Source: Candidatus Nomurabacteria bacterium
Lineage (GTDB): Bacteria > Patescibacteriota > Minisyncoccia > Phycocordibacterales > UBA9973
NCBI GenBank assembly: GCA_943350875.1
Contig: CALRAL010000002.1
Location: forward strand, 68,221-132,220
Reading direction: 5' to 3'
DNA length: 64,000 nucleotides
Shown here: positions 10,508 through 63,060 of the stretch, in pieces
Layout of the letters: each line of letters begins with the position of its first letter
Numbering within the stretch: position 1 is the stretch's first letter
Position numbers and translations under genes: made by a program
Notes under the pieces: generated by a model
The model's database searches: none
What the model was told of the DNA's origin: nothing
The model's input: only the letters and a program-made list of their open reading frames with translations

Positions 10508-10635
10508 CTCTCAAATGAGCTACAAAAACCACATTTCTGAAATACGAGATGTGGTTTTTTTTTATTTATACTACAAAACAATACGGTCGTCTTGTTTCAT
10601 AGTATACACAGGCAACGCCTGTGTATTTAATTTTG

Positions 10636-11033
10636 TGGAGATGCGGGGAATCGAACCCCGGTGCAGAAGGTTTTTACAAAGAAATCTACATACCTAGCGC
10701 ACTTTTTGGTTTAAATTGAAAAATTCTTAAGCGAGCCAAATATTTTTCAATCGATTCCTTTTGTTTCGAAAAAAAGTCAGGAAATTCTTTTCTCTATCCC
10801 GATTATATTATGCCTGCCCTCATATATCGGAAGTCTATGAGAGAGACACAAGCTTACGCTAAAGCGGAAACTTGAGCAAAAGCAAAGTCCTTCATACCGA
10901 AGTATGGAGAAGCGATTGCTTTTACTTTAGAAGCTAATTTTGCAATTAACATTTGAGCGAATTTTTATGAGATTACGCCCATGCTCAGTATGCATCAATG
11001 GTAAAAAGCCAACTGTCTATGCCTTGCATCCCC
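10636..11033 (-). ncRNA. ssrA: tmRNA (SsrA)
   Basis: 5' end GGGGAUGCAAGGCAUAGACAG... pairs with the 3' acceptor strand ...CAUCUCC-A and includes a G3:U70 wobble (alanine identity). A T-arm CGGGGTTCGATTCCCCG sits immediately 5' of the acceptor. An internal open frame ends ...FAFAQVSALA-TAA (stop at plus 10854-10856). smpB is immediately upstream on the same strand. Confidence 0.8.
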
Positions 11034-18976: not shown

Positions 18977-19034
18977 GTTATCCACATTGAGATTTTGTAA
19001 TGTAGATGTATGATGTAGAAGTGTTTAACAAATA

Positions 19035-19200
19035 AATAGGTTCATATTGGGGAAGTGAGGTGAAAGTCCTCCACAGTGCCGCTACGGTAAGTCCGATTTT
19101 GATTGGACAAGTCCGAATACCAATATGATATGTAGTCCCGAGCAGGAATTTAAATACTTAACGTATTTTTAGCCAAATGACTCCTCGGAAGGAGTTTTTT
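19035..19200 (+). promoter_or_regulatory. cobalamin (B12) riboswitch with terminator/SD-sequestering expression platform
   Basis: GGGGAAGTGAGGTGAAAGTCCTCCACAGTGCCGCTACGGTAAGTCCG matches the conserved GGGAA..GGTGAAAnTCC...CCGCTAC.GTAAG core. A downstream AGTCCCGAGCAGGAA B12-box-like segment follows. Hairpin GACTCCTCGGAAGGAGT plus T8 includes the AAGGAG SD, 10 nt before the ATG at 19206. Confidence 0.7.
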
Positions 19201-35397: not shown

Positions 35398-35604
35398 ATG
35401 AAGAATTTTAAAAAAGGTTTTACGTTAATCGAACTCTTGGTCGTTATCGCTATCATTGGTATATTGGCTTCAGTAATTCTTGCTATATCTAGTTCTTCTA
35501 GGAGTAAAGGTAATGATGCAAAGGTAATAACTCAAATAGTACAAATGGCCAGTCAAAGTTTTTTATTTAGTGGAACAACAGGGACTTCTTATGTATCAGT
35601 ATAG
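35398..35604 (+). pseudogene. truncated second pilin copy (first 26 aa identical to pilA, then diverges and stops at a REP element)
   Basis: MKNFKKGFTLIELLVVIAIIGILASV identical to the pilA N-terminus; the ORF ends exactly where the REP array begins. Confidence 0.5.
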
Positions 35605-35940
35605 CAAGAACCGTTCTTGCTACAGGAAGAAGTCATCCAAAAGATGGCTTTTTCTTTTTCCCCACGATAGCAAGAACCGTTCTTGCTACAAGAGTATAGC
35701 AAGAACCGTTCTAGTATAGCAAGAACCGTTCTTGCTACAGGAAGAAGTCATCCAAAAGAAGTATAGTATAGCAAGAACCGTTCTTGCTACAATCAAGAAA
35801 TCACCCCTCAAAGGGTGGTTTTTTGTATTGGGTGGGTTTTAGTATAGCAAGAACCGTTCTTGCTACAAGAAGAAGTCATCCAAAAGATGGCTTTTTCTTT
35901 TTCTACACGATAGCAAGAACCGTTCTTGCTACAAGTAATT
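35604..35940. repeat. array of ~8 REP-like palindromic units (TAGCAAGAACCGTTCTTGCTA) with repeated spacers (BIME-like)
   Basis: Palindromic 21-23-nt units at ~35605, 35667, 35694, 35713, 35767, 35847, 35918. Repeated inter-unit segment GGAAGAAGTCATCCAAAAGATGGCTTTTTCTTTTTC. Confidence 0.8.
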
Positions 35941-35960
35941 AAACTTGATATACTTTAACC

Positions 35961-36641
35961 ATGTTGCGCAAAGATCCATTTATAACAGGCGAGTATTATC
36001 ATCTATATAATAGAGGCATAGACAAAAGAGTAATTTTTAAATCAAAAAATGACTATGAAAGGTTCATTATGCTTTTGTATGTCGCGAATTCTAACAACAA
36101 ACAGCCTCTTCGTTTGGATAATTTAATTAATCATTCTCATAAGAATTTTAATGAGATTATGCTTTTAGATAAAGGTGAACCACTTGTTTCTATTGGAGCT
36201 TGGTGTCTGATGACTAACCATTTTCATTTATTAGTTCGACAAGAGGTTGATGGGGGAATTACAAAATTTATGAAAAAACTGGGTACTGGATATTCCATGT
36301 TTTTTAATATTAAATATCAAAGAAGTGGAGCTCTTTTTGGTGGTTTATTTAAATCAAAGTTGATTGGGAATGATGATAATTACATAAGACACTTACTGGG
36401 CTATATTCATCTAAATCCACTTGATATTAAATTCTCTGGTTGGGAAAAAATTATTGAGGAAGCATATTCAAAAGAATGGAAGGATTTTCTAGAGAATTAT
36501 CTATATTCAAGCTATAAGGATTATATTGGTGAAGATAGGGTGGAGAAGAATATTTTAGATATTAAGAATTTCCCTGATTATTTTAATGAAGAAAATTTGT
36601 TTGAAGATTTTATAGATAATTACTTAATGGAAACATTATAG
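35961..36641 (+). CDS. REP-associated tyrosine transposase (RAYT; IS200/IS605-like Y1 HUH transposase)
   Basis: HUH motif NHFHLLV and catalytic-Tyr motif GYIHLNPL; REP palindromes flank it on both sides (variant copy at 36644-36668). Confidence 0.7.
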   Translation: MLRKDPFITGEYYHLYNRGIDKRVIFKSKNDYERFIMLLYVANSNNKQPLRLDNLINHSHKNFNEIMLLDKGEPLVSIGAWCLMTNHFHLLVRQEVDGGITKFMKKLGTGYSMFFNIKYQRSGALFGGLFKSKLIGNDDNYIRHLLGYIHLNPLDIKFSGWEKIIEEAYSKEWKDFLENYLYSSYKDYIGEDRVEKNILDIKNFPDYFNEENLFEDFIDNYLMETL

Positions 36642-37102
36642 CACTATAGCAAGGACCGTCCTTGCTACAATCAAAGGTGTTTTTGTATTGGGTGCGTTTT
36701 GTGTTTTGTGGTATAATTAAATTATGTTAAATTCACTTATAAACCTAGAAGCTTTAGGAGAAATAAGTAAAGATTTAGGTCAGATTTTTTTCGCTTCAGT
36801 TTTTCTTACTAGTTTAATGGGGAATGTGATAGATTATTCCACTATCTTTACAGGACTGATTTTATCATTAGTTTTTTGGTCGTTTTATGTTATATCTAGG
36901 AAAAATATTAATAATTAATTCATGAATATAAATGTTATGATAAATATATATATACTCGGGGCTTTATTAGCTATTGCAATTATACTTTTAGCTATTTTTG
37001 CAAAAAAAAGATAATCGCTAGTTTCCAATGAAAAGGGATATTTTCTGATTGTTTTTGGATATGTTATAATATACCAGATTATTATTTAAACAATTTACAA
37101 AA

Positions 37103-57724: not shown

Positions 57725-57799
57725 CAATTTATTACTTTTTCAGACAATTTTTTAGTATATCATATATGATAGTCTAAGGAACTTTGAGTTCTTAATGTA

Positions 57800-58198: not shown

Positions 58199-58259
58199 GG
58201 TCTATTATTAGTATATCATATATGATAGATTAATAAAATGTTGATCATTTTTTTATCTT

Positions 58260-59252: not shown

Positions 59253-59264
59253 TAAAATTTATTT

Positions 59265-59304
59265 CCCGCCTGCAAAAGCTATGCTTTAGCATTGCGGGCA
59301 GGCT
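59265..59304 (-). repeat. CCTGCCCGCAATGCT...GCAGGCGGG mini-element forming the thrS C-terminus and stop
   Basis: Same ~40-nt element at 62317-62354 (end of nusB-nudix), 50572-50618 and 50785-50824 (inside pheS). The gene-end copies both encode KPARNAKA-stop. Confidence 0.7.
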
Positions 59305-61054
59305 TATTCTTAATCTCCTCTAAAAGTTTTGCGAGGAGTTCTTCACTTGTCATCTGGCCGAGCGGGCCAGAGTCACGGGATTCGAGAGTGGTTTTGTTTG
59401 CCTCTATTTCTTTATCACCGATAACTATCCAATAAGGTACTTTATTATTTTTAGCATCGCGGACTTTTGTACCTAGATTTGTATCAGTATCATCAAATTC
59501 TACACGGATATTATTCTCATTTAACAATTTGTAAATTTTTTTTGCATATTTATTATGATTCTCTCGTACAGGAATCATTTTTACTTGCACAGGTGAAAGC
59601 CAGAGAGGGAAGTTGCCGGCGGTGTGTTCTATAAGGATAGACAAAAATCTATCAATAGAACCCATAATAGCTGCATGGATCATTACGATTCTTTCTTTCT
59701 CTCCTTTTTCATTTACACAAGTAAGGTCAAAACGCTCGGGTTGATTCATATCTAGCTGAATAGTAGCTACTTGCCATTGCCTGCCTAGTGAATCTGTGGC
59801 CATAAAATCTAATTTTGGTCCGTAAAAAGCAGCTTCACCGACACCTTCGAAGAATTCAGTTTTGCGTTCTTGAGCTAATTCTCTTAAAGTAGCTTCAGCT
59901 TGTTTCCAGCTTTCTTTGTTGCCTAGATATTTTTCTGGGTGAACAGGGTCATGTAAGGACAATCGAAGTTTTAAATTAAATCCAAAAGATTTGTAAAATG
60001 GTTCAACCACCTTGTCCCAAATTGTACCCAATTCTTCTTTCACTTGTATCATTCTGCAAAATACATGTGCATCGTCCTGAGTAAAACTACGGACTCTGGA
60101 AAGCCCTGAAAGCTCACCTGTCTGTTCATCTCTATAACAAGTAGTAGAATTTGCATATCTTTGAGGAAGTTCTTTGTAGCTCCATTGTTTGCGATCAAAT
60201 ATCTGTATATGATGAGGGCAGTTCATCGGCTTCATGGCGAACTCATGCCCTTCACGTGTAGTGATTCTAAATAATTCAGTTTTAAATTTATCCCAATGTC
60301 CACTTTTCTCGTATAATTCTTTTTTGGTGATATGAGGAATTTCTACTTTCATATAGCCATATGCTTTACGTAATTCCCATACGAAATCATCTAGAAGATT
60401 TCTCAAAACAGTTCCTTTAGGGGTCCAGAGGGGTAGTCCGCTTCCTACTAATTCAGAAAATACAAAAAGATCCAATTCTTTTCCAAGTTTCTTATGATCT
60501 CTCTTTTCTGCTTTTTCGCGCTGTTTTAGATAAGCTTCAAGTTCTGTCTTTGTATTAAATGCGAGTCCGTAGATACGGGTGAGCATTTTATTCTTTTCAT
60601 CTCCACGCCAATACGCTCCTGCTACACGGTCGAGCTTGAAAGATTCTGGATCAATATCTTTGCTTGGATATTCTAAATGTCCTCCACGACACAGGTCAGT
60701 GAACCCTCCGCAAGTATATGTAGTGATCTTTTCTCCACGTTCTACTATTTCATTTATGAGTTCTGTTTTATACTCGTTATTTTTGAAAAATGCCAATGCT
60801 TCGTCTTTTGATATTTCTTTGTGTTCCCATTCTGTCCATTTTGGTAATTTCTTCTTCATTGTGTCTTCTATCTTTTTCAAGTCGCTGTCAGCTACTTTTT
60901 CTCCACAGAAATCAATATCGTAATAGAAACCGTTGTCTATGGCAGGCCCAAGGGTGAGCTTTACTTTGTCGAATTTGTAAATGTTGCCTACAGCCGATGC
61001 CAGCAGGTGAGCAAGGGTGTGCCTTAATTTAGCTATTTTTTCATCTTTTTCCAT
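59279..61054 (-). CDS. thrS: threonine--tRNA ligase (no N-terminal TGS domain); last 8 codons plus stop supplied by a palindromic element
   Basis: Class II motifs (FRYE..., HRD..., GSIERF), zinc-binding CxxxH, anticodon-binding C-terminus. Confidence 0.85.
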   Translation of the reverse strand: MEKDEKIAKLRHTLAHLLASAVGNIYKFDKVKLTLGPAIDNGFYYDIDFCGEKVADSDLKKIEDTMKKKLPKWTEWEHKEISKDEALAFFKNNEYKTELINEIVERGEKITTYTCGGFTDLCRGGHLEYPSKDIDPESFKLDRVAGAYWRGDEKNKMLTRIYGLAFNTKTELEAYLKQREKAEKRDHKKLGKELDLFVFSELVGSGLPLWTPKGTVLRNLLDDFVWELRKAYGYMKVEIPHITKKELYEKSGHWDKFKTELFRITTREGHEFAMKPMNCPHHIQIFDRKQWSYKELPQRYANSTTCYRDEQTGELSGLSRVRSFTQDDAHVFCRMIQVKEELGTIWDKVVEPFYKSFGFNLKLRLSLHDPVHPEKYLGNKESWKQAEATLRELAQERKTEFFEGVGEAAFYGPKLDFMATDSLGRQWQVATIQLDMNQPERFDLTCVNEKGEKERIVMIHAAIMGSIDRFLSILIEHTAGNFPLWLSPVQVKMIPVRENHNKYAKKIYKLLNENNIRVEFDDTDTNLGTKVRDAKNNKVPYWIVIGDKEIEANKTTLESRDSGPLGQMTSEELLAKLLEEIKNKPARNAKA

Positions 61055-61419: not shown

Positions 61420-62340
61420 ATGGCAAATAGGCACCTTTCAAGATCAATAGTTCTCCAGACTCTTTTTGAGTTTGATTTTAATGGCTTTAAAGAAGTCGAT
61501 GTAAAAGAAAGGGTAAAACACAATATAGAAGAATTCGCCCCAGGGCTCGAAGATGATGTTTTTGTCTTTTCTCTCGTAAATGAAATATTAAAGAAGCACA
61601 AAGTTATTGATGAGATAATAGAAAAAGCTGCGCCCGAGTGGCCGATAAATAAAATATCTTTTGTGGATAGGAACATCTTGAGGATTGGTTTGACAGAGTT
61701 ACTCTTTGGTGACAGGACTCAAGTCCCTCCCAAGGTGGCTATCAATGAGGCAATAGAACTTGCCAAAACTTTCGGCGGAGAGAATTCTAGTAAATTCGTA
61801 AATGGAGTCCTCGGTGCTGTGTATAAAGAGATAGGTGAGCCAGGCAAAGAAGAAACTAGTAAGAAAAAGAAAAAAGAAAATGAACCTGTTGATCCAAAAA
61901 AGTTGGCAATGGAGAATTTTGTCGGAGCTCTAATATATGCGAGGAAGGGAACTGATTTATTTTTAGTGTTTGTGCATGATGTATTTGGATATTGGACTTT
62001 ATCAAAGGGGCATATAAATGAAGGAGAGAATGTAGAAGAAGCGACAATAAAAAGAATTAAAGAAGAAATTGGTTTGGATATAATAATAAAGGAAAATCTT
62101 GGGGACAAAGAATACGTGGCTTCGCATCCAGAAAAGGGAAAAATTCTAAAACATGTGACATATTTCCTTGCCGAAAGTGAATACAAAGATATTGTATTAG
62201 AGAAGTCTGGTGGGCTTGATAATGCAAGATGGTTTATGTTAAAAGAAATTCCAGAACTCCATATCTACAATGATATCATTCCACTTATTTCAAAAGCGAT
62301 AGAAATAATTAGTAAACCTGCCCGCAATGCTAAAGCATAG
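61420..62340 (+). CDS. nusB: NusB antitermination factor fused to C-terminal Nudix hydrolase domain
   Basis: NusB region ([14 protein letters not shown]...[12 protein letters not shown]...[10 protein letters not shown]), K-rich linker, Nudix box [23 protein letters not shown]. Confidence 0.7.
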
Positions 62341-62343
62341 CTT

Positions 62344-63060
62344 TTGCAAGCGAGAAATAATTTTATGGTAAATTTTTCAGATTTTGAGAAAAAAACAAAA
62401 ATAACTTTTAAGGATAAAAAACTGCTTACTCAGGCATTTATTCACCGTTCATATATAAATGAGAATCCTAGCACTGGACTCTCTCACAATGAACGTCTTG
62501 AATTCTTGGGGGATGCGGTACTAGAGCTTATTGTGACAGACTTTCTTTATAAAAAATATTCATCTTATGCAGAAGGGGAATTGACTGCTCTCCGATCAGC
62601 TCTCGTGAATGCTGTTATAATTTCTGAGATTGCTTCTCATATTGGGATGAATGATTTTCTACTTTTATCTAAGGGTGAAGCAAAAGATATGGGCAAAGCT
62701 AGGCAATACATTCTCGCCAATACTTACGAAGCATACGTCGGGGCTGTGTATTTAGATCAAGGATATGATGTAGTAGATAAATTTGTCATTAAAACTCTTT
62801 TACCAAAGACGGAGGAAATAGTAAACAAGAAACTCTGGCGAGATGCAAAAAGTTTAGTGCAAGAAAAAGCGCAAGAATTCGTAAATGTAACTCCTTCATA
62901 CAAAGTCACGCATGAGTCAGGCCCAGACCATGACAAACATTTTACTGTTGGTATTTATTTTGATAAAGCGCTCATTGCAGAAGGCAAAGGCAAATCAAAA
63001 CAAGAAGCTGAACAAAAAGCTGCCGAAAATGCATTAAAATTGAAGAATTGGCTCGACTAA
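62344..63060 (+). CDS. rnc: ribonuclease III
   Basis: ERLEFLGDAVLELIV catalytic signature plus C-terminal dsRBD. Confidence 0.9.
   Translation: MQARNNFMVNFSDFEKKTKITFKDKKLLTQAFIHRSYINENPSTGLSHNERLEFLGDAVLELIVTDFLYKKYSSYAEGELTALRSALVNAVIISEIASHIGMNDFLLLSKGEAKDMGKARQYILANTYEAYVGAVYLDQGYDVVDKFVIKTLLPKTEEIVNKKLWRDAKSLVQEKAQEFVNVTPSYKVTHESGPDHDKHFTVGIYFDKALIAEGKGKSKQEAEQKAAENALKLKNWLD

Follow-up and report, generated by a model that had tools for sequence, protein, structure and literature searches.

A Nudix-fold domain with a degenerate catalytic box fused to the standard NusB of Paceibacteria-class bacteria

We found that the stretch of Candidatus Nomurabacteria DNA analyzed here (64,000 nucleotides with a G+C content of 34.9%, hereafter the window) encodes a 306-aa protein in which a NusB domain is joined to a Nudix-fold domain. 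Our preferred reading, to which we give a probability of roughly 0.55, is that this protein is the NusB standard to Paceibacteria-class (CPR) bacteria carrying a mainly non-catalytic Nudix binding module, which modulates or anchors NusB in rRNA transcription and RNase III processing. The catalytic motif is broken in the window protein and the Nudix box is not conserved in its relatives, so the Nudix domain probably acts by binding a ligand or partner and not by cleaving nucleotides. Few bacterial transcription factors are as conserved as NusB, which normally consists of one bare domain, and here a whole class of ultra-small, genome-reduced bacteria keeps an extra domain of 140 residues on it, beside the RNase III gene. 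This points to a lineage-specific elaboration of the control of rRNA transcription and processing, so far unstudied, and would provide a bacterial example of an enzyme fold turned binding module, of relevance to research on antitermination, on the Nudix family and on CPR bacteria.

The gene, which we call nusB::nudix, spans 61420..62340 on the forward strand, stop codon included. According to both the sequence and the list of open reading frames in the window, its frame is uninterrupted and its product begins with MANRHLSRS; a protein 100% identical to it (P0001) is present in public collections. Two Pfam profiles match well above their cut-offs and far beyond what chance would give, namely PF01029 (NusB) on aa 7-136 (E 5.5e-33, score 114.6 bits, cut-off 23.1) and PF00293 (NUDIX) on aa 168-278 (E 3.1e-12, score 47.1 bits, cut-off 21.1). 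A scan of the window found no second NusB or Nudix match.

In transcription antitermination, NusB acts as the partner of NusE/S10 on BoxA RNA, and canonical NusB proteins consist of a single domain of about 130-150 aa. The first 138 residues of the window protein match NusB both in equivalog score and in superposition on the NusB of a BoxA complex, and the difference lies in what follows, i.e. a GEPGK motif, a Lys-rich linker and a Nudix-fold domain of 140 aa. The all-helical NusB domain proper (61438..61827, forward strand, aa 7-136, the span of the PF01029 match) reaches 119.4 bits with TIGR01951, the nusB equivalog of NCBIfam (cut-off 88.35), is modeled as six helices within aa 2-138 with a pLDDT of about 90, and superposes on Aquifex NusB from the NusB-NusE-BoxA complex (3r2c/3r2d) with a TM score of 0.88 and an rmsd of 1.9 Å. 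Conservation was measured on a sample of 80 species-level fusions that are 54-77% identical, and 59 of the 138 columns of the NusB half are at least 95% conserved. This half is an orthologue of true NusB. A precedent for linking a NusB-fold RNA-binding domain to a partner acting on rRNA is given by RsmB/Sun, a 16S rRNA methyltransferase with a NusB-like domain fused at its N-terminus. An identity with RsmB/Sun itself was rejected, as the weak matches to RsmB models cover the NusB part only (NF011494, 49.8 bits against a cut-off of 319) and a methyltransferase match in Pfam is absent.

The NusB and Nudix halves are separated by a Lys-rich linker of about 20 residues (61834..61896, forward strand, aa 139-159), in which the GEPGK motif precedes a KKKKK run and which is predicted to be disordered. 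Positions G139, E140, P141, G142 and K143 are each at least 90% conserved in the 80 species. The structure was modeled with AlphaFold2 from an alignment of 131 sequences (mean pLDDT 87.5), superseding an earlier model built from 18 close sequences (pLDDT 73). Both domains are mostly above a pLDDT of 90, and residues 141-156 fall below 50 in both models. The prediction describes two well-folded domains on a flexible tether, without confident packing between them; given a pTM of 0.50 and the disordered linker, an interdomain contact cannot be claimed confidently. Among the Foldseek matches there was no PDB chain spanning both halves.

The Nudix-fold domain (61897..62313, forward strand, aa 160-298), recognized by PF00293 and with the alpha/beta/alpha fold of the superfamily, is closest to enzymes of the Ap(n)A-hydrolase type in PDB search and Foldseek. 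Its closest sequences in the PDB are Ndx1 (1vc8), the Aquifex Ap4A hydrolase (3i7u), CT771 and human NUDT2, with E values from 5e-7 to 4e-5. The fold comparison points the same way, with TM scores of 0.87 to 3i7u, 0.86 to Ndx1, the Ap6A hydrolase of T. thermophilus, and 0.78-0.80 to Chlamydia CT771; the Nudix-type regulators NrtR and AraR are also among the matches. The sequence-only reading, which had recognized a NusB of about 140 aa, a Lys-rich linker (located here at aa 145-158) and a C-terminal Nudix fold, is therefore confirmed in its main outline, with PF01029, TIGR01951 and PF00293 all exceeding their curated cut-offs and the fold comparison agreeing for both halves.

Ap(n)A hydrolases carry a signature consisting of a P-K-G-H strand before the box and a conserved Tyr after it. 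The fused domain retains K196, G197 and Y232, with the Pro replaced by Ser, and shares with Ndx1, 3i7u, CT771 and NUDT2 the W-x-x-x-K-G-H strand and the Tyr following the box. However, these four enzymes are stand-alone proteins with a strictly canonical box, whereas the fused domain is joined to NusB, has SKG in place of PKG, and does not conserve the catalytic glutamates of the REUXEE core. The Nudix half probably descends from Ap(n)A-hydrolase-type Nudix enzymes. More specific identities were tried and rejected: RppH (NF001936, 25.4 bits against a cut-off of 118; NF001934, 15.1 against 241), the NAD(+) diphosphatase NudC with its NAD-cap decapping activity (NF001299, 21.1 against 158), and the 8-oxo-dGTPase MutT (NF008044, 17.5 against 148; TIGR00586, 14.1 against 97.9).

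An exhaustive search with the Nudix half alone against 1.84 billion representatives at 50% identity gave 141 matches at E <= 1e-10. The stand-alone relatives are proteins of about 140 aa with the motif W-x-[FL]-P-K-G-H. We analyzed the gene neighbourhoods of four of them (P0145, P0156, P0223 and P0237), and none lies near nusB or rnc; their contexts are mobile-element or phage-like, contain metabolic genes, or are on contigs too short to tell. In these four neighbourhoods there is no sign that the association of NusB with Nudix pre-dates the fusion. The closest stand-alone relative with a canonical box, P0145, is 41% identical and is encoded on contig SRR22388351_56690 (L127), where its neighbours resemble an integrase, a DNA methylase and a phage replication protein, i.e. 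a mobile element.

The fusion is widespread. When 5.8 billion proteins were searched, 8000 scored matches were obtained, and the best 120 of these, which were inspected, are 74-82% identical to the window protein, all about 300 aa long and all with both Pfam domains. Their sources are assemblies of NCBI, JGI, ENA and Logan, and those that bear a name are called "transcription antitermination factor NusB" of Paceibacterota, Minisyncoccia, Nomurabacteria or Patescibacteria. A profile made from divergent members recovered 4819 further proteins at E <= 1e-10, and among the matches listed about 118-120 clusters are all two-domain proteins of about 300 aa. Taking one genome per GTDB species, full-length relatives are present in at least 597 species-level genomes of Paceibacteria/Parcubacteria. 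As judged from these sequence matches, the NusB-Nudix fusion is real and ancient and is present in thousands of protein clusters, and our results show that it represents the standard NusB of Paceibacteria-class (Parcubacteria/CPR) bacteria. The family is already in public databases but annotated only as NusB, which makes the fusion invisible in genome annotations. We found no published description of it in the literature on NusB with Nudix, on NusB in CPR, or on CT771 and Ap4A. The sequence-only reading had considered the architecture non-standard; this holds with respect to model bacteria and to the absence of a published description found, but within a large bacterial class this is the usual form of NusB and not a one-off.

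The junction is equally conserved, including the linker with its GEPGK...EPVD...KL pattern, and the frame is open across it in 79 of the 80 species loci. In the remaining one, from a metagenome-assembled genome (L024:3001-3900), a single in-frame stop replaces codon 136, between GAVYK and LGEPGK at the end of the NusB domain, and the Nudix frame downstream is intact; this stop reflects a sequencing error or else a genuine splitting of the fused gene.

The genomic context of the fusion is also highly stable. In the window, nusB::nudix is preceded by rpmF, coding for ribosomal protein L32 (61164..61394, forward strand, an open reading frame matching Pfam Ribosomal_L32p on the identical contig), and followed by rnc, coding for RNase III (open reading frame 62344..63060, forward strand, with a likely ATG start at 62365), these being the upstream and downstream genes of the operon. 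The order rpmF - nusB::nudix - rnc was found in 78 of the 80 species loci, the other two ending at contig edges, and rnc lies downstream of the fusion in 80 out of 80 loci reaching that far. Divergently oriented thrS is upstream of the operon in 37 loci. As for more divergent fusions, P0214, whose box is fully degenerate, has rnc (Pfam Ribonuclease_3 plus dsrm) directly downstream, and P0238 does not have it there.

The Nudix box of the window protein (62008..62076, forward strand, aa 197-219) is degenerate. With the consensus G-x5-E-x7-R-E-U-x-E-E-x-G-U, the REUXEE core reads KRIKEE, so that box positions 15-16 are K-R instead of R-E, and therefore the first Glu of REUXEE, a Mg ligand, is missing and replaced by Arg. 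The box had been taken as intact from the sequence alone, which does not stand in view of this departure from the consensus. The enzymatic couplings proposed with it (to (p)ppGpp, NAD-capped RNA or nucleotide-pool cleaning) are likewise unsupported; the Mg-binding Glu is lost, and the NudC, RppH and MutT models score far under their cut-offs.

The box is poorly conserved in the rest of the family as well. The core variants of the 120 nearest clusters include REIKEE (47), KRIKEE (45), RELKEE (7), ERIKEE (5) and several others. In the 80 species, the key residues of the box are conserved at 90% (E7), 86% (R15), 55% (E16), 79% (E19) and 86% (E20); all five are retained together in 30 species only, at least one being lost in the other 50, and in extreme variants such as RSVKQK and GDGNE nearly all of them are gone. 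Conservation stays below 95% in every one of the 23 box columns, and the E16 column stands at the 38th percentile of conservation inside the Nudix domain. However, 23 of the 139 columns of the Nudix half do reach this level, every one of them outside the box: A163, G169, V185, H186, D187, F189, G190, W192, T193, K196, G228, Y232, P237, K241, K244, V246, L250, G264, G265, L266, D267, W271 and Y283. As far as this alignment tells, the catalytic box is the least conserved portion of the Nudix domain across the family.

The comparison with stand-alone relatives gives a similar picture. Among the representatives at 50% identity, a canonical box is present in 9 of about 52 fused proteins versus 20 of 24 stand-alone ones, and three of the four non-canonical stand-alone proteins resemble truncated calls of fused genes. 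The stand-alone group has Glu at box positions 16 and 19 without exception (100%), whereas in the fused group the commonest residue at position 16 is Val (24%), not Glu, and position 19 is Glu in 51%. On a neighbour-joining tree of the NusB half, parsimony counts at least 20 state changes of E16 and at least 13 of E19, numbers that are probably inflated because the tree is short and noisy. These patterns show a relaxation of selection on the catalytic box after fusion, with the rest of the domain remaining strongly conserved.

What would such a domain do? In our preferred reading, it would serve mainly in binding and not as a pyrophosphatase. Its target might be a ligand of the adenine-nucleotide or polyphosphate kind, the nascent 5' end of the RNA, or another protein, and the domain would thereby modulate or anchor NusB while rRNA is transcribed and then processed with the help of RNase III. 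Given where they fall in the loop-helix-loop arrangement, the nearly invariant residues are predicted to line the substrate cleft, occupying the strand and loop that precede the Nudix helix as well as the loops round the cleft.

The main alternative, that the domain is an active hydrolase tethered to NusB, appears unlikely to us, even though a number of features speak for it. NusB bound to BoxA in the rRNA leader would place the Nudix domain near the nascent 5' end, where RppH-like removal of pyrophosphate or removal of an Np4A-type cap would start turnover of the leader together with RNase III; a second possible route would be local degradation of Ap(n)A. The nearest relatives in sequence and fold are indeed Ap4A/Ap6A hydrolases, the best (weak) NCBIfam Nudix match is to RNA pyrophosphohydrolase, and the gene is conserved beside rnc. 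Some Nudix-family enzymes with altered boxes are active. Moreover, since 30 of 80 boxes are canonical and E7 and E20 show 86-90% conservation, some members of the family may still hydrolyze their substrates, and the window protein may have a weak residual activity of this kind. However, the window protein itself lacks the Mg-binding Glu, the species that miss one or more key residues, some of them nearly all, nonetheless retain the remainder of the domain and the linkage to rnc, and the stretch expected to be catalytic is the one that is least conserved. The curated RppH, NudC and MutT models also remain far under their cut-offs, and the stand-alone relatives are unlinked to nusB or rnc.

An eroded catalytic motif could also mean that the Nudix half, acquired through an accidental gene fusion, has no function and is decaying as a passenger, and the in-frame stop at the domain junction of one species in 80 would fit such a decay. 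We regard this as very improbable, as thousands of clusters and at least 597 species, with extremely streamlined genomes, keep the domain at full length, several of the 23 highly conserved residues of the Nudix half are specific to the fused family, and the AlphaFold model of the domain is confident. Finally, the linker is coded by an A-rich run (AAGAAAAAGAAAAAAGAAAA) liable to sequencing slippage, which might suggest that separate nusB and Nudix genes have been joined by a frameshift or an assembly chimera. The chance of this is negligible: the same frame and the same junction occur in independent NCBI, JGI, ENA and Logan assemblies, and the 120 nearest clusters, the at least 597 genomes and the divergent-profile matches together rule out an artefact.

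A binding role for a fused Nudix domain has parallels. TRPM2 NUDT9-H, NrtR and AraR all carry a non-catalytic Nudix fold on a regulatory or effector protein, the same layout as in the NusB fusion, and retain ligand binding despite a decaying box. NUDT9 uses the first Glu of REUXEE to coordinate its catalytic Mg, and the RILGEE and REFGKK mutants are inactive, while the NUDT9-H domain of human TRPM2 (RILRQE) binds ADP-ribose without hydrolyzing it (PMC6461439). NUDT9-H retains only the last Glu (PMC6461439), which resembles the pattern of the NusB fusion, where E20 is kept more often than E16; by analogy, it provides a direct precedent for the conversion of a fused Nudix domain into a pseudoenzyme that binds a ligand and keeps the last Glu. 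The partners are different, being an ion channel in TRPM2 and a winged-helix DNA binder in NrtR and AraR, and the ligands of these systems are ADP-ribose and arabinose, whereas the ligand binding of the NusB fusion is a predicted one.

Within the rRNA antitermination complex of E. coli, which contains NusB, SuhB is a component with an enzyme fold. It differs from the NusB-linked Nudix domain in having an inositol-monophosphatase fold and in being a separate polypeptide. We tentatively propose, as a possibility that we hold to be rather doubtful, that the pseudo-Nudix domain is a sensor or anchor in CPR rRNA antitermination, binding an alarmone or the 5' end of pre-rRNA, or acting as a SuhB-like subunit. 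The alarmone would then be a dinucleoside polyphosphate, and the 5' end of the nascent pre-rRNA would be bound in its triphosphate or capped form. If true, such a domain would make NusB ligand-gated or would tether the leader for processing by RNase III, a role not known from any Nus factor. Concerning the rRNA genes themselves, an Rfam scan found no rRNA operon in the window, which is therefore without BoxA.

The C-terminal KPARNAKA sequence pointed out by the sequence-only reading is present, but is encoded by a repeat that also terminates thrS, and is unrelated to the NusB-Nudix architecture. It results from a 38-nt palindromic insertion (62317..62354, forward strand), from which the gene takes its seven final codons (PARNAKA) and its TAG stop; an intact copy (59265..59302, reverse strand, repeat pair I1) makes the thrS product end in KPARNAKA as well. 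In both genes, the element (CCTGCCCGCAATGCTAAAGCATAGCTTTTGCAGGCGGG) lies between the penultimate Lys codon and a relic AAATAA (Lys-stop), which in nusB::nudix is found at 62355-62360, just past the element. Consistently, homologues end in IEIISK(K/N) for the fusion and in EEIKNKK for ThrRS, directly before the stop. The thrS copy folds with -21.6 kcal/mol (z -2.8), and the 3' arm of the nusB copy is decayed. Tail residues 302-306 are disordered in the structure model (pLDDT below 50).

The 38-nt element is absent from the loci of the 80 related species. Its exact 32-nt core was found in 45 metagenome contigs (L082-L126) with unrelated flanks; most of these copies are intergenic and six to seven are at gene 3' ends, and in L086, L095 and L123 the element lies about 12 nt from the 5' end of 16S rRNA. 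No Rfam family matched it, and its sequence was not found in searchable literature. It looks like a REP/MITE-like dispersed hairpin of Patescibacteria. Imperfect direct repeats flank about 10 of 39 distinct copies (14-41 aligned nt, mostly about 20 nt, locus-specific, shuffle p <= 0.01), at loci L088, L091, L100, L106, L108, L111, L113, L115 and L122; in L091, a tRNA-Ser gene follows the element, and the upstream repeat copies 22 nt from the 5' end of this gene. No significant flanking repeat was found at the window copies, where a simple target-site duplication is accordingly unsupported.

The two window copies form a 63-nt inverted repeat with 86% complementarity (59255-59317 / 62302-62364), which brackets a 3.1-kb segment containing thrS, rpmF and nusB::nudix. 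In Logan, an independent 3074-nt unitig (L001) has both ends exactly at the two element copies, as expected because the repeat is longer than the k-mer. The 3.1-kb segment may undergo inversion between the element copies.

Elsewhere in the window, three tRNAs, a tmRNA gene (10633-11033, reverse strand) and an AdoCbl-II (cobalamin) riboswitch (19032-19129, forward strand) reach Rfam gathering scores. Seven copies of a 30-nt palindromic repeat (TATAGCAAGAACCGTTCTTGCTACA...), spaced by 49-76 nt, lie between small open reading frames at 35593-36674, and an eighth copy is found 736 nt further on; the cluster is not CRISPR-like, because the intervening sequence is partly repeated too. Finally, a 34-nt inverted repeat with 82% complementarity and 430 nt between its arms (57744-57777 / 58208-58241, core TTAGTATATCATATATGATAG) is also detected as a direct repeat because its core is palindromic.
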